This document shows, piece after piece, positions 7,487 through 61,232 of a stretch of DNA of 64,000 nt. Position 1 is the first letter of the stretch; each line of letters starts with the position of its first letter. A program made the position numbers and the translations under genes. Location of the stretch: positions 11,672-75,671 of the forward strand of contig JBBRNV010000001.1 in NCBI GenBank assembly GCA_038230075.1, in the 5' to 3' direction. The notes under the pieces are model-generated. The model saw only the letters and a list, made by a program, of their open reading frames with translations. It searched no databases and was not told the origin of the DNA. This DNA is from Minisyncoccia bacterium (GTDB lineage Bacteria; Patescibacteriota; Minisyncoccia; Phycocordibacterales; CALRBL01).

Positions 7487-7509
7487 ATAAAGAAGTATAT
7501 CATTCAGTT

Positions 7510-8079
7510 ATGAAAACTATTATCGGAGTTGTTGGTGAAAAAGGAAGCGGAAAAGAAACTTTTGTTTTACACGTTAAGGCATATTTGGAAAAGAAAGCTC
7601 GTTCAGTATCTCATACGCGATCATCAGATATTTTGGCAGAAACATTAACTGCATGGGATCTTCCTCAAACAAGACATAATTTGCAACACATGGCTATTGT
7701 GATGGATGAGGGATTTGGAAAGGGAACATTAACTCACGCTGTTAAAAAAAGAATAGAGAAACTCCCTGGAGAAATTGTTATGTTTGATGGAGTAAGGTGG
7801 CATAGTGATGAACAAATGATTCGAAGTTTTACAACACACATGCTTATCTACATTACAGCCGACATTAAAGCTCGATATGAGCGTACAAAAGAACGAAAAG
7901 AAAAGGTTGGCGAATCTTCAGCGAGTTATGAACAATTTATGAACGAAGAAAGGGCACTCACCGAACTCGATATTCCACTTATTGGCCAAACAGCTGATTT
8001 TAAAATTGAAAACAATGCCACCATCGAAGAATTTCAACAAAAAGTTGAAGATTTTTGTACCACACATTTGAAAGTCTAA
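7510..8079 (+). CDS. P-loop NTPase / small-molecule kinase-like protein
   Basis: Walker A GVVGEKGSGKETF at the N-terminus. 189 aa, no further assignment. Confidence 0.4.
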   Translation: MKTIIGVVGEKGSGKETFVLHVKAYLEKKARSVSHTRSSDILAETLTAWDLPQTRHNLQHMAIVMDEGFGKGTLTHAVKKRIEKLPGEIVMFDGVRWHSDEQMIRSFTTHMLIYITADIKARYERTKERKEKVGESSASYEQFMNEERALTELDIPLIGQTADFKIENNATIEEFQQKVEDFCTTHLKV

Positions 8080-15639: not shown

Positions 15640-15673
15640 AAAAATATTATATCACGTTTTTAAAGTTCTTGTG

Positions 15674-21341: not shown

Positions 21342-21367
21342 GTTACCTAGTGATATACTAGATAGAT

Positions 21368-25862: not shown

Positions 25863-25886
25863 ATAAAATTTGATATAATTACCGCA

Positions 25887-26117
25887 ATGCCACATAAAAA
25901 ACAAGAAAAAGAAAATACATCAGAGCATATTACCCATTCACTTCAGAAATTGCAGGAAATAGTTACCTGGTTTGAACATCAAAAAGAAGTAAATTTGGAA
26001 GAAGGTTTGCAAAAAGTGAAAGAAGGAGCTGATCTCATTAAACACAGTAAGGCTCGTTTAAAAGAATTAGATAATGCATTTAAAGAAGTCGAGAAAGATT
26101 TAGATGAATCAAAGTAA
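25887..26117 (+). CDS. xseB: exodeoxyribonuclease VII small subunit
   Basis: 76-aa helical protein, LEEGLQKVKEGADLIKHSKARLKELDNAFKEV, immediately downstream of xseA. Confidence 0.7.
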   Translation: MPHKKQEKENTSEHITHSLQKLQEIVTWFEHQKEVNLEEGLQKVKEGADLIKHSKARLKELDNAFKEVEKDLDESK

Positions 26118-39486: not shown

Positions 39487-39772
39487 GAAGATGGGTGGCC
39501 CGTTGAAGGACCGCCCACCATAGCTCGTACAGCAACGCTGTTTTATCTTCCTATTCGACTGGGCGTATATCAACAAAGTTGTGATCCTACACACGCAATT
39601 GCGTATCTCAAGCGGATCCACACTTCTACACACGTCATGTTTTCTGGCCAAGAATAGCGGCAACCAAGCGTTATGCTCAGCAATATCCGTGTCGTCGAGG
39701 GAAATAGGCCAACTGCTATATAATAGTTAAACATATGGTGACTCAGTGGTCAATTTAAGCTAGTATGTCCCT

Positions 39773-41893
39773 ATGTCTATGAGATCAAGTAAAAAATTTG
39801 AGATTTCTAATAAATACGCACCTGCCGGCGATCAACCAACCGCTATTCAAAGCTTGTTTGAGGGAATTGGTAAAGGATATCGACATCAAACACTTCTTGG
39901 GGTAACAGGTTCAGGAAAAACCTTTACCGGAGCAAATGTTATTGCTCAAATTCAAAAGCCCACATTGGTGATCGCTCATAATAAAACTCTCGCAGCACAA
40001 CTCGCTCAAGAATATAAAGAATTTTTTCCTAATAACGCTGTTCACTATTTCGTTTCATATTACGACTACTATCAACCTGAGGCGTATATGCCAGTTACCG
40101 ACACCTATATTGAAAAGGAGGCACAAATTAACGAAGAGATCGATCGGTTGCGACATGCGTCTACACAGGCCCTCTTAACACGAAGAGACGTCATTATTGT
40201 TGCCTCAGTTTCTTGTATCTATGGATTAGGTTCTCCAGAAGAGTATCAAAAGGTTAATTTAAAACTCGAAAAAGGATTAGTGATCGATCGTGCAGAATTA
40301 ATTCGAAAATGTATTGGAATTTATTTTGAACGAACAATTGCAGACTTAAAGCCAGGCCAAATTCGAGCTCTTGGAAACATGGTTGAAATTATGCCAACAA
40401 GTGAAAGGGTGATTTATCGAATCAATTTAAAAAATACTGAGAAGGGAAGTGTGGTTGAACAGATATTAAAGATTGATGAAATCACCCGTTCTATTATTGA
40501 GGAAGTAGATGCTTTTTTCTTATTTCCAGCAAAACATTTCGTTACACCAGAAGATGAACGAAAAAGAGCTATTCTAGATATTAAGCTTGAATTAGACGTT
40601 CGATTAAAAGAACTTCATAAAGAAGGAAAAATTTTGGAAGCAGATCGACTCAAAAGACGAACTACATATGATCTCGCTCTTATCAAAGAAGTTGGATACT
40701 GTAACGGTATTGAAAACTACTCACGTCACTTCTCAGGAAAGGCTCCTGGAGAAGCACCAGACACTCTTCTTTCATACTTTCCTCATAATAAAGATGGAAG
40801 TGCAGACTTTCTTACTATCATCGATGAATCCCACGTTACTATTCCTCAATTAAATGGAATGTTTGCAGGAGACGCTTCACGAAAGCAAAGTTTGGTAGAT
40901 TTTGGATTCAGACTTCCTTCTGCTCGAGACAATAGACCATTAAAGTTTGCAGAGTTTGAAGAAAGAATCGGACAAACAATTTATACATCAGCAACACCTG
41001 GAAAATTTGAGCTTGGAATAAGTGAAAATATTGCTGAACAAATCATTCGTCCAACAGGATTGATTGATCCCGAGATAGTAATTAAACCCATTATCGAACA
41101 AGACATTGTTGTTGATGGAAAAACAAAACGATATAAGGGTCAGGTTTTTGATTTTATCGAAGAAGCTGAGAAAGTTATAAAAAAAGGATTCAGAGTGCTC
41201 GCCACAACTCTTACTAAAAAAATGGCAGAAGACTTAAGTGCATATCTTAAGGAAAAGAATATCAAAGCAAAATATTTACACAGTGATATTCAAACACTTG
41301 AACGTATTCAAATTTTGACCGAACTTAGAAAAGGCGTATTCGATGTGCTTGTGGGAGTTAACCTTCTTCGAGAAGGACTCGACCTGCCTGAAGTTTCACT
41401 CATTGGAATTCTTGATGCAGATAAAGAAGGATTCCTTCGAAGTGAATCGGCACTAATTCAAACCATAGGAAGAGCAGCTCGAAACTCAGAAGGAAGAGTT
41501 ATTTTATATGCTGACAAAGTTACGGGCTCTATGGAACGAGCAATAGGAGAAACAGATCGACGACGAACTAAGCAGGTTGCATATAATACAAAAAATGGAA
41601 TTACTCCAACTACAATTATAAAAAAGATTCAAGATATTACCGAGCAAATTCAATCTGAACATGCAAAAACAGTAAGTGCCTTAATGGCATTCGATATGAA
41701 GCGTCTAGAAGATGATCCAGAAGCACTTCTCAAAGATAAAGAAAAACAAATGAATGATGCAGTGAAAGATCTCGATTTCGAGACAGCTGCTATTCTTCGT
41801 GATGAGATTGTTGCACTGGCTAAAAAAGCAGGAATCGACCTACTCAAAATTCATGGCGTAAAGAAAAAAGTCACAAAAAAGCCAAAAAGATAA
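39773..41893 (+). CDS. uvrB: excinuclease ABC subunit B
   Basis: Full-length UvrB helicase motifs including GVTGSGKTFT, with a C-terminal UVR domain. Confidence 0.95.
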   Translation: MSMRSSKKFEISNKYAPAGDQPTAIQSLFEGIGKGYRHQTLLGVTGSGKTFTGANVIAQIQKPTLVIAHNKTLAAQLAQEYKEFFPNNAVHYFVSYYDYYQPEAYMPVTDTYIEKEAQINEEIDRLRHASTQALLTRRDVIIVASVSCIYGLGSPEEYQKVNLKLEKGLVIDRAELIRKCIGIYFERTIADLKPGQIRALGNMVEIMPTSERVIYRINLKNTEKGSVVEQILKIDEITRSIIEEVDAFFLFPAKHFVTPEDERKRAILDIKLELDVRLKELHKEGKILEADRLKRRTTYDLALIKEVGYCNGIENYSRHFSGKAPGEAPDTLLSYFPHNKDGSADFLTIIDESHVTIPQLNGMFAGDASRKQSLVDFGFRLPSARDNRPLKFAEFEERIGQTIYTSATPGKFELGISENIAEQIIRPTGLIDPEIVIKPIIEQDIVVDGKTKRYKGQVFDFIEEAEKVIKKGFRVLATTLTKKMAEDLSAYLKEKNIKAKYLHSDIQTLERIQILTELRKGVFDVLVGVNLLREGLDLPEVSLIGILDADKEGFLRSESALIQTIGRAARNSEGRVILYADKVTGSMERAIGETDRRRTKQVAYNTKNGITPTTIIKKIQDITEQIQSEHAKTVSALMAFDMKRLEDDPEALLKDKEKQMNDAVKDLDFETAAILRDEIVALAKKAGIDLLKIHGVKKKVTKKPKR

Positions 41894-42192
41894 AACCTTT
41901 TATTTATATGTAAAAGTGATATATTACTTTCTGCATTGTTTTTTCAACCCCGCAGTTACTTACACATGTTAGAATCTACCACACCAGCCGAATCCACCAT
42001 CGACAGTCGATACGTCACCAAACATGAATTGGAAAAAATCGGAATTAAAGTAAGGCGACCAATGGGTCCTGAATTCATGATTTGTTGCTTGCGACCAGAT
42101 TTGACTCAAGCGGGTCAAACTGACGTTGGTCCTGTTCAACTTCCACCGAGCCTTTTTCGCCGCCGGAGTTAACTACCGACTGAAGCTATCTC

Positions 42193-42228
42193 ACCCCTGT
42201 CCACCACGTGTGGAGGGGGGTTTGCTTT
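42193..42228 (+). terminator. rho-independent terminator ending a plus-strand transcript in the uvrB-uvrA spacer
   Basis: CCCCT-gt-CCAC-cacgt-GTGG-AGGGG stem followed by TTTGCTTTT. Confidence 0.5.
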
Positions 42229-42362
42229 TACAAATGTATCGTCTTTAGGTAAGATAGTACCGTTTCCCCGAAGAAGCCATGCCAGTTGTTAGGGCTCAGA
42301 AGGGGATTTTTAACGTACATAACATTGACTAGTGAACAATCGTTCACTATAATTACATACTC

Positions 42363-45002
42363 ATGAGCACATCAGAATCAAAAAAGAAAAGTGATCACAA
42401 AAGTACTTTTGTAGGTCACGACTCAATTATCATCAAAGGTGCCCGAACGCACAATTTAAAGAATATTGATGTTGAAATGCCTCGAAATAAAATGATTGCT
42501 ATCACTGGTCTTTCTGGATCAGGAAAGTCATCACTTGCATTCGACACTATTTTTGCCGAAGGACAACGACGCTATGTTGAATCTCTTTCTTCATATGCCC
42601 GACAATTTTTGCGACAAATGCAGAAACCAGATGTTGATGAAATCACAGGTCTTTCTCCTGCAATTTCTATCGATCAAAAGTCTCGATCGAACAATCCACG
42701 CTCAACCGTTGCAACAATTACTGAAATTTTTGACTATCTTCGAATTTTATTTGCTCGAATTGGAAAGCCTCACTGTTTAACTTGTGGAAGAGAAATTAAA
42801 AAGCTTTCAAAAGAAGAAATCTTAGAGTCGATTTACAAAACGGTTACATCTATTGAGTCAAAGAATACAAAAAAAGTAATGGGGGTTGAGGTTAGTAAGC
42901 AAATGTTTCAAGTCTTCGCTCCACTGATTGTTGGAAGAAAGGGTGAATATTATCAACTTCTTTATGATCTGTTGGGAAAAGGATATGACCGTGTTCGAGT
43001 CGATGGTTCTGTTAAAAATCTACGAGAACAAATTATTCTTGATAAAAACAAGAAACATTCTATTGATGTTCTTGTTGATGAATTTTATATTTCAGAATTA
43101 AAATCAAAAGATAAAAAGCAAAAAGCTGCGTTCGAAGAACGTCTTAATGAATCAATTGAGAAAGCTTTAACAGAATCTGATGGTTTGCTTCGTATTACAA
43201 CAGAAAGTGAAGATCATCTCATTTCTTCAAAGTTCATGTGTCCTTTTGATGGATTCTCATTTCCTGAAGTTGAACCTCGACTATTTTCTTTCAATTCACC
43301 TTATGGAGCTTGTCCTGAATGTAACGGATTAGGTACCCGGCATTTCTTTGGAAATGAAGTGTGTCCTAAATGTAATGGAGCTCGTCTCCGCGATGAAGCA
43401 CTTAATGTCTTTCTGATTGAAAATAATAATAAAGTTAATGTTATTCAACTTGTTGATCTCTCTATAAAAAATGCTATCAAGTTTTTCAACGATTTAAAGC
43501 TGTCACCAACAGAAAAAGAAATCTCAAAAGTAATCGTTAAAGAAATTCTGGCTCGTTTGTCGTTTATGAATAATGTTGGAATTGAATATCTATCACTTAG
43601 TCGAAAGGCGTCAACACTATCTGGAGGTGAGGCTCAACGAATTCGACTTGCTTCACAATTAGGTTCAGGCCTCGTTGGTGCTATGTATGTGCTTGACGAA
43701 CCAACAATTGGTCTTCATCAACGAGATAATGATCGACTCATTAGCACACTTCTTAATCTTCGAGATCAAGGAAATACTATTATTGTCGTTGAGCATGATG
43801 AAGATACTATTTATGCCTCAGATTATATTATTGATATTGGTCCAGGTGCGGGAATTCATGGAGGAAACGTTGTTGTGTCAGGATATCTCGATGAATTATT
43901 AACTGCCAAACATAATCCTTCAGGGTCTATTACCCTTGATTACCTCAGAGGTGACGAGGTTATTAAGATTCCAGAGATAAGACGAGATCAAAATCAAGGT
44001 GTAATCTCAATTAAAAATGGAAACATCTTCAATATTAAAAATTTGAATGTTGATATTCCTTTAGGTAAGTTGGTTGCAGTTACCGGAGTATCGGGTTCAG
44101 GAAAATCTTCTTTCACATACGAAATTCTCTATAAAAACTTACAAGCTCGATTTGATAAGCGATATCGAACGAATGAAATATTTAACTGTTCAACATTTAC
44201 AGGAACAGAATATTTAGGGAGAGCAATTTTGATTGATCAGTCTCCAATTGGAAGAACACCTCGGTCAAACCCTGCAACATATACAGGAGCATTTACACAT
44301 ATTCGAGATTTGTTCGCAGAAACAAGTGAAGCTAAGGCTCGTGGATGGAAATCAAATCGTTTTTCATTCAATGTTAAAGGTGGTCGTTGCGAAACATGCG
44401 AAGGAAATGGAATGATCGAAGTTGAAATGCATTTTCTTCCTACGGTATATGTAACGTGTGATGTTTGTAATGGAAAACGCTTCATGAAAGAAACACTTGA
44501 AGTTAAATATAAAAAGAAGAATATCTACGACGTATTAAAAATGACTGTCGAAGAAGCATCAGAATTTTTTAAAGACATTCCTTCTATTTCAGATAGATTA
44601 GAAACTCTCGGAGAAGTAGGTTTAGGATACTTAGAACTTGGTCAGTCAGCCACCACACTTTCCGGAGGAGAAGCACAACGAGTTAAAGTGTCATCTGAAC
44701 TCTATCGACCACATGTTCAAAAATCAATCTATATTCTTGATGAACCAACCATCGGTTTGCATTATGAAGATGTGAAGAAATTGATTGAAATAATTCAAGT
44801 TTTGGTGAACAAAGGAAATACGGTGGTTATCATCGAGCATAATATGGATGTTATTAAATCGGCAGACTATGTGATTGACATCGGCCCTGAAGGAGGTGAA
44901 GGTGGTGGTCAAATTGTTGCGAAAGGAACTCCTGAATATGTTGCAGGAGTGGCAAAAAGTTATACTGGCCAATATCTAAAGAAAGTACTTAAAAAGAAAT
45001 AG
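42363..45002 (+). CDS. uvrA: excinuclease ABC subunit A
   Basis: Two ABC ATPase modules ([19 protein letters not shown], two LSGGE signatures) and Zn-finger Cys pairs. Confidence 0.95.
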
Positions 45003-45370: not shown

Positions 45371-45443
45371 TCTAAGACTTAATCATACCTTTAAATATTT
45401 TAAAGTCACATTTGACGAATATGATATAGTATTGCCATAAAAA

Positions 45444-48270: not shown

Positions 48271-48439
48271 GACGGTATTGTAACAGGTTTCTGTGATGAC
48301 AGAACGGAGCGATAGGACTCGGTCACCAGTTCTTTTGCTTCACAAAAAGACTGTCGACCCCGCCTCATTTGTCGCTGTCGCAAGCGACATGGCGACTTCA
48401 TTCAGGCCTTCTCGCCCTGTCAGAGCTTTCAGATAATTA

Positions 48440-48467
48440 AAAGATCTGGCTAAATGTCAGATCTTTT
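48440..48467. terminator. bidirectional hairpin terminator 3' of tRNA-Ala
   Basis: AAAGATCTG-gctaaatgt-CAGATCTTT with T-runs on both strands. Confidence 0.5.
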
Positions 48468-48472
48468 ATGTA

Positions 48473-55665: not shown

Positions 55666-56754
55666 ATGACCAACAAATCAAAGGTGATCTTAGGGATTAT
55701 TGCAGCCATTATTATCATAGGAGGTATTTGGATTGTTAATGTAAATCGTAATAATGAGCCAAAAAATTTGACCTTTGGTTTGATCTCTAATCTCACTGGA
55801 GATTACTCTGCAGTAGGAGAATCATTTGCAAAAGGTGCAGACTTAGCTCAGTCTGAATGGAATACAGCACATCCAAACCAACAAATTCAAATGATAAAGG
55901 AAGATGATGGCTTTGATGCAAAGAAAGGTCTTTCTGCTTATAAAAAACTTACAAGCATTGATCATATTGATGCTTTAATCAATACAACCACAATTACTAT
56001 TGATGCACTATATGATGATGTATCAAAATCTGGCATACCAGTAGCACTTGGATTCGAGCAAGGAATCGAAGCGAGAGACGATAATGTAGTCCAGTTATGG
56101 CCAGGAAGTGTGCCTGCAGAAGTAAAGCTTGGAGAAGCAATCAAAGAAAAAGGATTTAAGAATATTGTATTATTCGTCGATAACGGCTCCGCCGCTTTTC
56201 AGCGATTTGCAGATGGTTTTAAGAAAGGATATGGATTACCAGTGCAAGAAATAAAAATAGCTGCTGATGGAAGTGATGTGCGTACAAGCGCTCTCAAGGC
56301 AAGCACACTCAAGCCCGACGCAGTTGTATTTATTATCAAACCCACTTCAGGAGCACTTTTGGTTAAAGAATTGAAATCAATTAGTAAAGATAATTATCAA
56401 TTCGTGTTTGATGCCAATATTCAGACAGGTTTTACTGACTACACAAAAATTCTTGGTGATACTAATGTTTTGAATGGTAGTATTATTTATACTGTACCGA
56501 GCGTCTATCGAAAAGACTTTACAGATAATTTCAAGAACAAATTCGGCACGGAGCCAACTATTGGATCAGAGACCGGTTATAACGCATTTAAACTTCTTGC
56601 TCAAAGCTATGATGAAAATAAAGAAAAATGGGTTAAAAATATGCAGGAAGCCAGCTTTGATGGTGCAGACGGAAAGATTGTATTCGATGAGAATGGTATA
56701 AGAATTCCTGAACTTAAAATTGGTACGATTGAGAATGGAAAGCTCCCAAACTAA
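55666..56754 (+). CDS. ABC transporter substrate-binding protein, Liv/branched-chain amino acid type
   Basis: N-terminal signal/TM anchor and type I periplasmic-binding fold. Followed, after the island, by a livH-like permease fragment. Confidence 0.7.
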   Translation: MTNKSKVILGIIAAIIIIGGIWIVNVNRNNEPKNLTFGLISNLTGDYSAVGESFAKGADLAQSEWNTAHPNQQIQMIKEDDGFDAKKGLSAYKKLTSIDHIDALINTTTITIDALYDDVSKSGIPVALGFEQGIEARDDNVVQLWPGSVPAEVKLGEAIKEKGFKNIVLFVDNGSAAFQRFADGFKKGYGLPVQEIKIAADGSDVRTSALKASTLKPDAVVFIIKPTSGALLVKELKSISKDNYQFVFDANIQTGFTDYTKILGDTNVLNGSIIYTVPSVYRKDFTDNFKNKFGTEPTIGSETGYNAFKLLAQSYDENKEKWVKNMQEASFDGADGKIVFDENGIRIPELKIGTIENGKLPN

Positions 56755-56812: not shown

Positions 56813-56833
56813 GTTAAGGGTTAACGTTTCGGG

Positions 56834-57649
56834 TTAGTCCGCAATACGCTTGAGCGCATCGACCCAATCCTTGCCCTCCTCGCTGATCCGCGCATGGAGC
56901 ATTCGCACCTTCGCGCCCTCGATCGAAATCGGGAACCGCGAGTAGTGGTCGAATGCCGCCGAGAACGGATCATCGTGGTGGCTGAGATCAGTAACGACGG
57001 CGACTTGCTTCGCGCCCTGACGAGCCGCCTCAATCATGAGGAGGATGCCATAGGGCACCAGCTCGCCGAGTTTAAACTTGTCCCCCATCGTCTGCGAACT
57101 CATCGGGAGATGGAGGTCCGTGAGAACCACATCGAACTTCTCCTTGCCGAGAAGCTCCATCGCCTCCTGATAGCCGGTTGCCGTGGTGAGAAAGTGACCA
57201 GCCAAGCCTTTCTTGGCGCTCGCGATATGCTTCGCAGCGTCATCGATGACGAGGATGCGGAGCGCATCAGCCTTGATCGGCACTTGTTCTTCCACAGGGG
57301 ACTCAGAGATTTCTGCAATCGGCGTGAGCTTCTTGCTGATCTCAGAGATCGTGGTCAGAAGATTGTGAAGTAGGTCTGCACCGTGCACGACTGTCACATT
57401 TTCAGGAAGATTGGTCGGCTTAGTGTGGTAACCGCCGCCTCCAACACCCCAAATGCAGAGATAGGACTTCTTTTTATCGAAGTCTTTCTCGATTTTGCGA
57501 ACGCTGTCGAAGATGATGAGATCAGCTTCGCTGGCGACGTCGATGAACTTTACGGGCTCACCGAGGATTTGCTTAATGGTTTTGCCTAGGATTTTTGCTT
57601 CCATGGCGATGTGGACCCGGATGGGTTGGATAGTGGTAGCGGTATTCAT
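56834..57649 (-). CDS. atypical receiver (REC, CheY-like) domain protein with unknown N-terminal domain
   Basis: C-terminal half has LRILVIDD ... KFDVVLTDLHLP ... VAVVTDLSHHDD, matching REC beta1 DD, beta3 phospho-acceptor D and beta4 T positions. Paralogous to 59677..60198. GC-rich codons. Confidence 0.6.
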   Translation of the reverse strand: MNTATTIQPIRVHIAMEAKILGKTIKQILGEPVKFIDVASEADLIIFDSVRKIEKDFDKKKSYLCIWGVGGGGYHTKPTNLPENVTVVHGADLLHNLLTTISEISKKLTPIAEISESPVEEQVPIKADALRILVIDDAAKHIASAKKGLAGHFLTTATGYQEAMELLGKEKFDVVLTDLHLPMSSQTMGDKFKLGELVPYGILLMIEAARQGAKQVAVVTDLSHHDDPFSAAFDHYSRFPISIEGAKVRMLHARISEEGKDWVDALKRIAD

Positions 57650-57737
57650 GAGATATGGCCTTTCTTTGTAGGTTGGATTTGAACGTTAAGTTGGAAAAGG
57701 GCTGGATTGCCTCTAATAACATAGTAACACAACTGTA

Positions 57738-57766
57738 TTGACAAGTCAAATTCGATGTGATAAGAT
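57738..57766 (+). promoter_or_regulatory. candidate promoter TTGACA-N17-TAAGAT with TTGAC-aa-GTCAA inverted repeat over the -35
   Basis: Identical hexamers and spacing to the promoter candidate at 59520..59548. Sits in the divergent AT-rich gap. Confidence 0.35.
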
Positions 57767-57831
57767 TTCGACCAAAGCACTTTACAAGTTGGTCATAGCT
57801 AAAAGTCCTTATTTTTTAAGGATTCCTAACT

Positions 57832-58302
57832 ATGACCAACCAAACAAACATCCTACGCACGTCTTTCGTGCAAGTGTGCAGCTTGCTCTGCATCGCCCTC
57901 GCTCTCTTCCTTACCGGCTGCGCTAAGAAAAAGGTCGAGGAGAAGGTCGTTACTCGGGGCTTCATGTATATGGAGTATCCCAAAGCGATTATTCTTCAAA
58001 TCGACAAGGAAGGCGTCGTCACCACTGGCGAATGGGAGAGTACCCCAGGCATTCCTTGGTCTTGGTGGAAGGATTCGGGTAAGAACGTGGGGAGCGAACT
58101 CACTGCCTATCCCGGCAATAAGTTCGTCCTTGAAGGACCGGCACAAGTGGGCGACCATTTTCGCTACCGCCTCTATTACAAAGAGATTCTCCTCGAAACG
58201 GGTGAGATGAAAAAGGTTTTGGAAAAGGTGACGGTCGAGAGCGACAAAATGGCGGATTATCAAAAGCAGATGGCTGCGACTGAAAGTCCGAAAACACAAT
58301 GA
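57832..58302 (+). CDS. lipoprotein (lipobox LFLTGC)
   Basis: Signal peptide with L-T-G-C lipobox and a beta-rich mature domain. GC-rich codons. Own hairpin terminator at about 58340-58385. Confidence 0.6.
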   Translation: MTNQTNILRTSFVQVCSLLCIALALFLTGCAKKKVEEKVVTRGFMYMEYPKAIILQIDKEGVVTTGEWESTPGIPWSWWKDSGKNVGSELTAYPGNKFVLEGPAQVGDHFRYRLYYKEILLETGEMKKVLEKVTVESDKMADYQKQMAATESPKTQ

Positions 58303-58448
58303 TGGTATACCCATCAGGAGAGCATCCTCAGGTTCGATCCCTGAAAGCATCACAAGCACTGTCCTTCGGGCGGTGCTTTACTTTTTGTATAAAATATGTT
58401 TAAATAATAAAAAATTTTGGTACATTCACAAACTGGCTTTAATCAGGT

Positions 58449-59432
58449 GTGCCGTTGAACACCAGTGTAGACATTCTTATGGATCAAACCACACAGGAAT
58501 TGGCTCAAAACCTTTGGAAAGGTTTTGAGCCTGATCTCACCGAAGATCGAAAGAAACGTTGGCAGGAAGTTTCAAGGGAAATGGCAGAGATGGGAGCACC
58601 TCATGTAAGTGAGGAGAGCGTCCATTGTCATTATGCTGACAGGATGCAACTCGAGACATTTCAGAGAGTCAAAGCGGCATTGGGCGATAAGATTCTCATG
58701 AAGCTCTCCGAACCATCACGGTTTGAAGTGTTGTATGTCGAGACCATGATCACCTGCAGCGCTGAATTCAAGCGAGACACCACTTCCGACTTTCAGAAGG
58801 ATATCGACAAGTTTGGTGTCGGCGCTAAGTTTGATGTTGAAAAAGACATCCAAGAAACTGAAAGAGAGCTCCGGAAATCTATCGAGTCGAAATTCAAACT
58901 CGAGATGCTCTTTTGGTCAGCGCTTGAGAAGGGCGGCCTGAAGGATGCTTCTGCGTTTCTTGCTGCTATTGAATTGGTACGGACGACCGCCTCTAACGAT
59001 TTGCAGATCGAAGCCCTCAACTGGAGGATCAACTTGGCAATTTCTCTGAACGATTTTGAGATGTTCAAAGAATCTTTCAAGAGAGCTGTCGGCATGCAGG
59101 ATCAGTTCGAGGATTTCCGCGAGGCTATGGCAAAAGGGATCAGACGTGTCGTGATCGAGAATCTCCTTCAGGGGCTGGAAATGTTGCCTTCTGATTTCGG
59201 TCTTGCTCAGGCACGTCAATCAGAAAAAGATATCCCAGCCTACTTTGAGGAGCAGGCACAGATCTTCCTACGCGAGGCGTTTTTGGAAATCGTAGACAAA
59301 ATGTGCGCTGATCCAGAGCTTGACCTTATAAAGACGGCAAGGATGGCACTAAGCGAGAAGCGCAGAAGCTATCTCCGGGTCAATCCCTGCTTCAAGGACA
59401 TCCTCTTTGTCGAAAAAAAGAAGGAGAAATAA
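58449..59432 (+). CDS. all-alpha hypothetical protein
   Basis: 327-aa ORF (GTG start at 58449, or ATG at 58479) with E/K/L/A-rich helical sequence. GC-rich codons. No recognizable motif. Confidence 0.5.
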   Translation: MPLNTSVDILMDQTTQELAQNLWKGFEPDLTEDRKKRWQEVSREMAEMGAPHVSEESVHCHYADRMQLETFQRVKAALGDKILMKLSEPSRFEVLYVETMITCSAEFKRDTTSDFQKDIDKFGVGAKFDVEKDIQETERELRKSIESKFKLEMLFWSALEKGGLKDASAFLAAIELVRTTASNDLQIEALNWRINLAISLNDFEMFKESFKRAVGMQDQFEDFREAMAKGIRRVVIENLLQGLEMLPSDFGLAQARQSEKDIPAYFEEQAQIFLREAFLEIVDKMCADPELDLIKTARMALSEKRRSYLRVNPCFKDILFVEKKKEK

Positions 59433-59476
59433 GAAAAAGCGAATGAAGCTGAGCAAGGTTCAATCCCAAGCTCACG

Positions 59477-59502
59477 CCCACAAGAAATTGTGGGTTTTTT
59501 TA
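59477..59502 (+). terminator. rho-independent terminator
   Basis: CCCACAA-gaaa-TTGTGGG followed by T8. Confidence 0.55.
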
Positions 59503-59519
59503 TTATCCAGACGAGTAAC

Positions 59520-59548
59520 TTGACAATATATATTAAGTATGATAAGAT
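59520..59548 (+). promoter_or_regulatory. candidate promoter TTGACA-N17-TAAGAT
   Basis: Same -35/-10/spacing and shared TGATAAGAT as the 57738 candidate. Confidence 0.35.
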
Positions 59549-59676
59549 AATAAAGTAAGTTCTTTGAAAGGTGTCATCCTGTTGAGTTTGGAAGAAAGGA
59601 CATAATTGACTTGCTAGCAAAATGCTAAGCGAATTATGTACTTTCTCACCACACTCAACTCAAAGGAAAAAACACC

Positions 59677-60198
59677 ATGAATATCAAGAAATTGCTCGTT
59701 ATCGATGACCAACCCTGCAACGTCGCGTCTGCTCACTTGACCCTTAAGGAGGGTTACGACTACAAAGTCGTGGACAACATCACTGCCGCCTACGACCTAC
59801 TGAAGTCGGGCGAGAAGTTCGACGTCGTCCTGACCGACCTGTGGCTGCCTCGTGGCGACTTCACTGGCGCCATGCGTGGTGGGGACACAGCAGCAACCCC
59901 TATCGCGGCTGGCCTGATCTTCGCGATCAGGGCCATGAACGAAGGCATGAAGGTCGTCATCTGCACGGACAGCGATCATCACCAGGATCGGCTCTGCTCG
60001 GTCATGGATCTCATCAACGATGGAACGCATGACAAAGAAAAGGCCATCTACTTCGTTGAAGCGAGAACCTGTCCGGTGGAGGGCGCCTGGGAGAACGGTG
60101 AAATCGTTCTCTCCGACGACTGGTATAAAAAGCCCGGTCCGCACCCGAAGAACTGGCTTCAAGCGATGAAAGTCGCCGGCCTCGTTCCTTACCGGTAA
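59677..60198 (+). CDS. stand-alone atypical receiver (REC, CheY-like) domain protein
   Basis: KLLVIDDQ ... KFDVVLTDLWLP ... KVVICTDSDHHQD. Paralog of the C-terminal half of 56834..57649. GC-rich codons. Confidence 0.6.
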   Translation: MNIKKLLVIDDQPCNVASAHLTLKEGYDYKVVDNITAAYDLLKSGEKFDVVLTDLWLPRGDFTGAMRGGDTAATPIAAGLIFAIRAMNEGMKVVICTDSDHHQDRLCSVMDLINDGTHDKEKAIYFVEARTCPVEGAWENGEIVLSDDWYKKPGPHPKNWLQAMKVAGLVPYR

Positions 60199-60258
60199 TA
60201 GTGGTGCACCCACTCGGTGAAGTAACCGACGAGTTCAATCCTCGTAAAACTTTCAAAC

Positions 60259-60296
60259 AACACTGCAAGATTCGTTCTGCGGTGTTTACTTTTTAT
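60259..60296 (+). terminator. rho-independent terminator
   Basis: AACACTGCA-agattcgttc-TGCGGTGTT followed by TACTTTTTAT. Confidence 0.5.
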
Positions 60297-60336
60297 AAAA
60301 CGTGGCTGTTTAAGAAAAAAATGCTAAAATAATAAT

Positions 60337-61091: not shown

Positions 61092-61232
61092 GTGAAGAAT
61101 AAAGCAGCCCAAGAACTAGGTAAAAAAGGTGGCCTAAAGACCAAGAAGAAATATGGTAAAAAGTATTTCAAGAAACTTGGTCAAAAAGCCGCAAAAGTAC
61201 GGTGGGGAAAAATCAAACCCGCCGTTGCTTGA
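61092..61232 (+). CDS. small basic KGG-motif-like ORF (possible remnant)
   Basis: GTG-initiated 46-codon ORF ELGKKGGLKTKKKYGKKYFKKLGQKAAK resembling stress-induced KGG repeat peptides. TTGCTATAAT -10-like element just upstream. No clear RBS. Confidence 0.2.
   Translation: MKNKAAQELGKKGGLKTKKKYGKKYFKKLGQKAAKVRWGKIKPAVA

Follow-up and report, generated by a model that had tools for sequence, protein, structure and literature searches.

The GC-rich spacer between uvrB and uvrA in an uncultured Paceibacteria genome: a candidate lineage-specific orphan unit ending in an intrinsic terminator

A GC-rich island in an intergenic region of an AT-rich genome is a classic hallmark of noncoding RNA, and the genuine structured RNAs that have come from GC-versus-IGR-length discovery have a conserved structure with covariation. 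The spacer between uvrB and uvrA described here resembles candidates of that kind in being long and in having a GC content well over the intergenic background, but is unlike them in having neither homologues nor an excess of folding energy. It was analyzed within a 64-kb stretch of DNA (“the window,” meaning the whole of that stretch), and the coordinates of the features discussed are collected in Table 1. The spacer is read here as a lineage-specific orphan unit, whose product would be either a small mRNA, possibly a decaying one, or an sRNA.

The adjacency of uvrB and uvrA is conserved in Paceibacteria, with a gap ranging from an overlap to about 4.5 kb, and in relatives this slot holds unrelated accessory genes, often GC-richer than their flanks. 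In the two nearest lineages (L082 and L084) it contains adk-like genes that are mutually only 20% identical, accompanied in L082 by an extra 112-aa ORF; L085 has a 161-aa hypothetical ORF, and L002 (7115–7336) a protein of 73 aa predicted to have two TM helices (MLLRLRKFAPHVVSLILLVVLGGAFVSLLVNQSDPPVDRADLPAQAIAGMLGFFFLVFALLAWRVTRENRPVR), whose gene has a GGAGG Shine-Dalgarno (SD) sequence, its own terminator, and a GC content of 0.49 vs. 0.38 in the flanks. GC-rich terminator hairpins are common in relatives just upstream of the uvrA promoter. Because relatives carry differing genes and terminators, the uvrB–uvrA junction is, to judge from this gene content, a recurrent slot across Paceibacteria for lineage-specific accessory DNA ending in a terminator, a pattern that the spacer in the window fits. 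The spacer shares with the slot genes of L002, L082, L084, and L085 its position, its plus-strand orientation, the tendency to be GC-richer, and the order of a terminator followed by a separate uvrA promoter. It differs from them in sequence, with no similarity to the adk-like, 112-aa, 161-aa, or L002 proteins at either the DNA or the translated level, and the two TM helices of the L002 protein have no counterpart in the 78-codon ORF of the spacer (ORF78), for which neither a TM helix nor a fold is predicted. A by-eye match to L002 (CCAGyCGrATCCACCA) was not significant, and an AAA_17 kinase encoded elsewhere in the window (7510..8079) was considered as an ortholog of the slot genes and rejected.

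Table 1. Positions of the features discussed, numbered from the first nucleotide of the window.
Feature	Position	Strand	Details
xseB	25887..26117		76 aa, leaderless; Pfam Exonuc_VII_S, E 1.6e-6
uvrB	39773..41893	+	706 aa; stop TAA 41891–41893; Pfam domains of called product
uvrB–uvrA spacer	41894..42362		469 nt; GC-rich core about 41945–42310
Extended −10 promoter-like box TGATATATT	41917..41925	+	matches TGnTATAnT; predicted transcription start about 41932
ORF78	41936..42172	+	78 aa, TTG start; stop TAA 42170–42172
Intrinsic terminator	42193..42229	+	hairpin 42193–42221, tail UUGCUUUU 42222–42229
Second hairpin	42265..42311	+	UCCCC...GGGGA then UUUUU; weak, interrupted; dG −15.5 kcal/mol, z −1.2
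uvrA promoter	42325..42353	+	TTGACT-17-TATAAT; 11/12 consensus matches
uvrA	42363..45002	+	879 aa; ATG start
GC-rich island ORF	56834..57649	−	
GC-rich island promoter	57738..57766		TTGACA-17-TAAGAT, upstream TG
GC-rich island ORF	57832..58302	+	
GC-rich island ORF	58449..59432	+	
GC-rich island promoter	59520..59548		TTGACA-17-TAAGAT, upstream TG
GC-rich island ORF	59677..60198	+	
Lysine-rich basic protein VKNKAAQELGKKGGLKTKKKYGKKYFKKLGQKAAKVRWGKIKPAVA	61092..61232		46 aa, GTG start, leaderless

The flanking genes place the source genome in the Patescibacteria/CPR, Paceibacteria group, an uncultured lineage. The called uvrB product has the ResIII, UvrB_inter, Helicase_C, UvrB, and UVR domains (Pfam), and its homologs, 51–79% identical, are nearly all from Patescibacteria MAGs of the Paceibacteria group. 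The exact protein is confined to contigs of one sample, and in a set of about 15 billion proteins the next closest has 79% identity. UvrA is 83% identical to the product of the L001/L082 gene, which bears UvrA_inter. Every comparative test (covariation, dN/dS) is limited by this lack of a close sequenced relative, the closest UvrB being only 79% identical. An assembly artifact is excluded for the spacer: L081, assembled independently by Logan from the same sample, matches it throughout at 100% identity.

The original prediction described a GC-rich spacer of 469 nt, and this was borne out. No intergenic region of the window is longer, most being <250 nt. GC content is 0.49–0.53 over positions 42050–42300 (100-nt windows); the best 150-nt window reaches 0.54, the 98.6th percentile, compared to a mean of 0.373 for the window as a whole, and the best 250-nt window 0.508, the 98.1st percentile. 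Over its entire length the spacer has a GC content of 0.43 vs. 0.32–0.38 in most other intergenic regions. The 5′ part is C/A-rich and G-poor, with GC skews of −0.37 and −0.29 at 41900–42050. Two other intergenic regions are also relatively GC-rich, at 0.465 each. One (39487–39772, 286 nt) lies upstream of uvrB and begins with a hairpin at about 39491–39520 (−19.8 kcal/mol), directly after the tgt stop codon and with a U-rich tail on the minus strand; its plus strand has a small second hairpin and TTTTATCTT, and neither an Rfam match nor a convincing ORF was found in it. The other (48271–48472, 202 nt) is on the 3′ side of a minus-strand tRNA-Ala(TGC) gene and has no Rfam match at E ≤ 0.1 except the tRNA itself.

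Comparisons of the spacer DNA with 86 related loci gave nothing significant (blastn, nhmmer, tblastx). It is absent from metagenome contigs (exact 28-mer search) and viral contigs (22-mer), has no blastn match in phage and plasmid collections, and has no second copy within the window, whose long intergenic regions have no repeat family in common. A mobile element, MITE, or phage or plasmid fragment was rejected on these grounds, i.e., a single copy in the window and no phage, plasmid, or viral match, and its short direct and inverted repeats are only at chance level.

A separate GC-rich island is found at 56830–60300, with GC content up to 0.65 (window mean 0.37) and four ORFs, two of which show similarity to receiver domains (Pfam E 3e-4 and 2.6e-7). 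It was probably acquired horizontally, since its codon usage is unlike that of the host. Each of its three plus-strand ORFs is followed by a 3′ module (58301–58387, 59456–59502, and 60202–60295) consisting of a hairpin resembling a tRNA T-arm (TCAGG-TTCGATC-CCTGA, ACGAG-TTCAATC-CTCGT) and then an intrinsic terminator with a T-rich tail, which after the first and third of these ORFs is TTTACTTTTT. The window contains three copies of the sequence GTTCRATCC and no more, one at 26–35 nt past each of the three plus-strand island stop codons. No tRNA was called at these modules, which could be att remnants of tRNA 3′ ends or a tRNA-like 3′ UTR element of acquired cassettes. Kinship of the uvrB–uvrA spacer with them was considered and rejected; the alignment is unconvincing and GTTCRATCC is missing from the spacer.

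An extended −10 promoter of the sigma-70 type has TGn followed by a TATAAT-like hexamer, placed right for a gene start. The sequence TGATATATT in the spacer, which the original prediction had not pointed out, has this form and this placement, beginning 24 nt past the uvrB stop codon and lying 10 nt ahead of the TTG codon of ORF78. There are 15 TGnTATAnT boxes in the window (both strands), about 11 of which sit 4–14 nt upstream of real gene starts, including those of xseB and a GTG-initiated basic protein of 46 aa. The motif is not over-represented in the window (15 observed vs. 10.4 ± 3.1 expected), so the weight of such a box comes from its position, not from the count. It is possible that TGATATATT arose by chance, the intergenic DNA being AT-rich (2–4%, as a rough estimate); its form and position suggest that it may work as a promoter.

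An SD sequence is found in just one of 47 genes of this genome. Many genes have a TGnTATAnT box 6–9 nt ahead of the ATG (e.g., at 233–241, 7494–7502, 15646–15654, 21351–21359, 25871–25879, and 45422–45430), implying that leaderless mRNAs are widespread; uvrA and uvrB themselves are apparently leaderless, or nearly so. The start codon is ATG in every clear gene of the window bar one GTG. Two of the leaderless genes, xseB and the one for the 46-aa protein, are small enough to fall below the 90-aa cut-off of the ORF map and make a natural comparison for ORF78, which like them is small, has TGnTATAnT just upstream, and is without an SD sequence. The resemblance does not extend further. Their ATG or GTG codons follow the −10 box by 6–7 nt, while ORF78 has a TTG codon 10 nt after it; their codon usage is like that of the host (+0.38 to +0.39 per codon), compared to −0.02 for ORF78; and xseB belongs to a recognizable family while ORF78 does not.

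At the other end of the spacer, the original prediction had placed an intrinsic terminator about 130 nt before uvrA. A stable GC-rich stem-loop with a U-rich tract directly after it is indeed found there, its tail ending 134 nt short of the uvrA ATG. The stem consists of ACCCCU/GGGGGU (6 bp), one G·G mismatch, and UCCAC/GUGGA (5 bp), closed by a CACGU loop; its predicted free energy is −20.1 kcal/mol (z −2.6), and six of the eight nucleotides of the tail are U. In an energy scan of all U-tracts on both strands of the 64 kb, it was tied for the strongest hairpin (−19.8 kcal/mol), and the remaining strong hairpins were intergenic and at gene ends. A simple terminator scan was silent here because of the internal mismatch. 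The overall plan is that of known intrinsic terminators, an 11-bp GC-rich hairpin with a 5-nt loop and a U-rich tail directly after it, located between a stop codon and the next promoter; the G·G mismatch in the stem and a G–C break in the U-tract UUGCUUUU are unlike them. The hairpin begins 21 nt after the ORF78 stop codon, which is normal gene-end geometry in this genome, where the terminators of other genes (e.g., those of tgt and of the gene that ends at 56754) are 5–25 nt past the stop. The use of canonical intrinsic terminators is among the firmer results obtained for this organism. Whichever reading of the spacer is adopted, the terminator probably shields uvrA, which has a promoter of its own, from upstream transcription. 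The second hairpin, between the terminator and the uvrA promoter, is not significant on its own.

The same terminator could serve uvrB, in which case the spacer would be a long uvrB 3′ UTR with no internal promoter. There is no hairpin right after the uvrB stop codon, the first strong terminator being the one at 42193–42229, and the lack of overall enrichment of TGnTATAnT would also fit. On the other hand, other genes have their terminators 5–25 nt past the stop, a GC-rich 3′ UTR of 300 nt would be exceptional in a compact genome, and TGATATATT has the same form as the boxes at real gene starts; we regard a uvrB 3′ UTR as improbable. An independent plus-strand transcript, as originally proposed, is plausible given the strong terminator and the extended −10 box, although the transcript itself is something that we infer from these signals.

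Whether such a transcript would be coding depends on ORF78. This frame is in phase with uvrB and lies in a stop-free run of 92 codons that opens directly past the uvrB stop codon; it was not taken as a read-through extension of uvrB, since UvrB is already complete (UVR domain, K-rich tail) and no homolog is similarly extended. The TTG codon is about 4 nt from the predicted 5′ end of the transcript, and an internal ATG at 41966 would give a 68-aa product. The predicted protein includes the stretches MLESTTPAESTIDSR... and VRRPMGPEF.... Relative to mononucleotide shuffles, which were used as controls for both the stop-free run and codon usage, a run of 92 codons is equaled in 7–10% of cases. The codon log-odds score of ORF78 is −0.02 per codon, intermediate between host genes in frame (+0.42 ± 0.15) and the off-frames (−0.77 ± 0.39); Pfam-supported genes of the GC-rich island have equal scores in their true frames (−0.02 to −0.08). 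Codon usage is somewhat better than in stop-free, composition-matched shuffles (z +2.1), and GC3 is 0.40 vs. 0.24 in host genes. With stops ignored, the frame leads the other five by only 0.07 per codon, a margin that would rank at the 5th percentile among real genes and that 44% of shuffles match.

ORF78 has no match in Pfam, NCBIfam, or PHROGs, in agreement with the original description of it as a 78-codon ORF without a recognizable family. A word-indexed search of 5.8 billion protein clusters found no homolog, nor did a translated match turn up when metagenome and viral contigs were scanned with the back-translated sequence. Exhaustive phmmer comparison with 1.84 billion representatives gave two matches (E 2e-7 and 7e-7), which were judged spurious; both are eukaryotic AHNAK-like repeat proteins in which “GIK..KGPEF” is summed over 7–11 repeats. 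Conservation at the protein level, which had been named as a test of the idea, is thus not seen across these 1.84–5.8 billion clusters. On the Logan contig, the gene caller placed no gene in the spacer. A single-sequence AlphaFold model had a pLDDT of 45 with no fold and no predicted TM helix, an outcome that would best be called uninformative to mildly negative. The suggestion of a small protein gene, then, is unsupported by conservation, with no credible homolog, a weak codon signal, and a low pLDDT.

The original prediction offered a structured ncRNA as the other possibility, having failed to fit tmRNA or RNase P RNA by eye. The latter point is confirmed: ARAGORN finds no tmRNA in the window, and in the spacer Rfam searches at E ≤ 10 give only three spurious matches to eukaryotic snoRNAs and miRNAs, with no family reaching E = 5. 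Over the whole window, only the tRNA-Ala passes the Rfam 15 gathering score. The structured RNA itself was not supported, either by a confident Rfam assignment, which had been proposed as a check, or by folding. The putative transcript (41932–42229) is no more stable than its dinucleotide shuffles (plus strand z −0.02, minus strand −0.37), instead of lying clearly below them in energy as expected for structured ncRNAs in general, and its MFE structure is a row of short hairpins and not a rod. The spacer as a whole has a slight folding advantage over its shuffles (z −2.0 on one strand and −2.35 on the other), but this is due to the terminator and the palindrome in the uvrA promoter. A minus-strand sequence, GGGGTGAGATAGCTTCAGTCGGTAG, was considered as the 5′ half of a tRNA and rejected; no model backs it, and its GGGG is part of the terminator stem.

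A divergent form of a known RNA (tmRNA, RNase P RNA, 6S RNA, or SRP RNA), or a riboswitch or leader of uvrA, seems scarcely credible. It has in its favor only the GC richness and the size of about 300 nt. Neither Rfam nor ARAGORN detects any of these RNAs in the spacer, and the slots of 14 relatives (spacers of 270–850 nt) likewise contain no Rfam RNA. The element cannot be the leader of uvrA, because the uvrA promoter is downstream of it, and by-eye inspection for an anti-terminator found no complement to the 5′ arm of the terminator.

A new lineage-specific sRNA, as opposed to a known one, is harder to dismiss. Such an RNA would extend over about 300 nt from the promoter at 41917 to the terminator at 42229, acting by base-pairing or protein binding, with the ORF incidental. 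A GC-rich island in an AT-rich intergenic background, bounded by a promoter-like box and a terminator, would be in keeping with this, as would the base composition of the 5′ part, which recalls unstructured seed regions, and the weakness of ORF78 on every test. Against it are folding at the level of shuffles (with only the small excess noted above for the whole spacer), the lack of an Rfam match or of any homolog that could be examined for covariation, and the coincidence that would be needed for a 92-codon frame to close just before the terminator (7–10% for the length alone). Taken together, these make an sRNA unlikely, but not implausible.

The uvrA promoter is near consensus, with an ATG codon 9 nt past its −10 hexamer, so that the uvrA mRNA would be leaderless or nearly so. 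Between its −35 and −10 hexamers is a perfect 7+7 palindrome (AGTGAAC-AATC-GTTCACT, 42331–42348), whose GAAC-N4-GTTC is the core of the Gram-positive LexA box (Cheo-box type). A LexA/SOS box at uvrA was considered and rejected: among 52 loci checked, the palindrome is missing upstream of uvrA in every other lineage, the sole match being this organism's own copy in L081; it is not present upstream of uvrB; and there is no LexA-like protein among the window ORFs tested. About 1.1 chance matches to the palindrome are expected in the window. The palindrome could serve some repressor as an operator, or it may have arisen by chance.

The signals in the spacer, i.e., a promoter-like box, an open frame, a stop codon, and a terminator, together suggest a gene-like plus-strand unit or its recent remains. 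A rival reading is full decay, with a former accessory gene in the slot now lost, the box and frame leftovers or chance occurrences, and only the terminator still working, to end uvrB transcripts and insulate uvrA. Consistent with this, the two nearest lineages have an adk-like gene in the slot and other relatives have different ones; slot genes evolve so fast, as the 20% identity of the L082 and L084 adk-like genes indicates, that a remnant could escape detection; the region upstream of uvrB is also long and GC-rich, and has extra genes in relatives; and the spacer has no homologs, poor coding statistics, and no called gene. However, a compact CPR genome, with intergenic regions mostly under 250 nt, would be expected to lose 469 nt of dead DNA quickly, and AT-biased decay of a host-like gene would not give a core with a GC content of 0.5 where host genes have 0.37. 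There is no translated similarity to the slot genes of relatives, and no Pfam match to adenylate kinase or anything else. A box, a 92-codon frame, and a stop codon 21 nt before a terminator are also unlikely to occur together by chance. A completely decayed gene is possible but, on this evidence, on the doubtful side.

The reading preferred here is an independent plus-strand unit with a coding-type RNA product, live or recently live, which is held tentatively and at somewhat less than an even chance. Transcription would start at about 41932 from the extended −10 box TGATATATT, of the kind that drives the host's mostly leaderless genes, continue for about 300 nt, and end at the intrinsic terminator (42193–42229). 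This would shield uvrA, which has its own near-consensus promoter with an operator-like palindrome. The product would most likely be a short orphan mRNA carrying the 78-codon frame (68 codons if read from the internal ATG), with an unstructured sRNA less likely. Promoter use, termination, and translation of the frame are all projected from sequence. Against such a unit, no homolog of the spacer DNA or of any of its reading frames was found anywhere searched, and for the same reason there is no sign of selection on it.

A stronger proposal is that the unit is a functional, lineage-restricted novelty with its own leaderless-type promoter, encoding either an orphan micro-protein that arose de novo or was recently acquired, or a new sRNA. 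This proposal is rather doubtful. Given its position beside the palindrome-bearing uvrA promoter, the unit might be linked to DNA-damage physiology.

As things stand, a spacer without conservation or detectable structure is a low-priority orphan, and the more solid by-products of the analysis concern the genome around it: the near-absence of SD sequences, the leaderless-type extended −10 boxes, and the recurrent accessory slot between uvrB and uvrA. The small RNAs, small proteins, and transcription-unit architecture of CPR organisms are, to our knowledge, almost entirely uncharacterized. If functional, the unit would provide a case of an orphan small gene or sRNA from one of these streamlined genomes.
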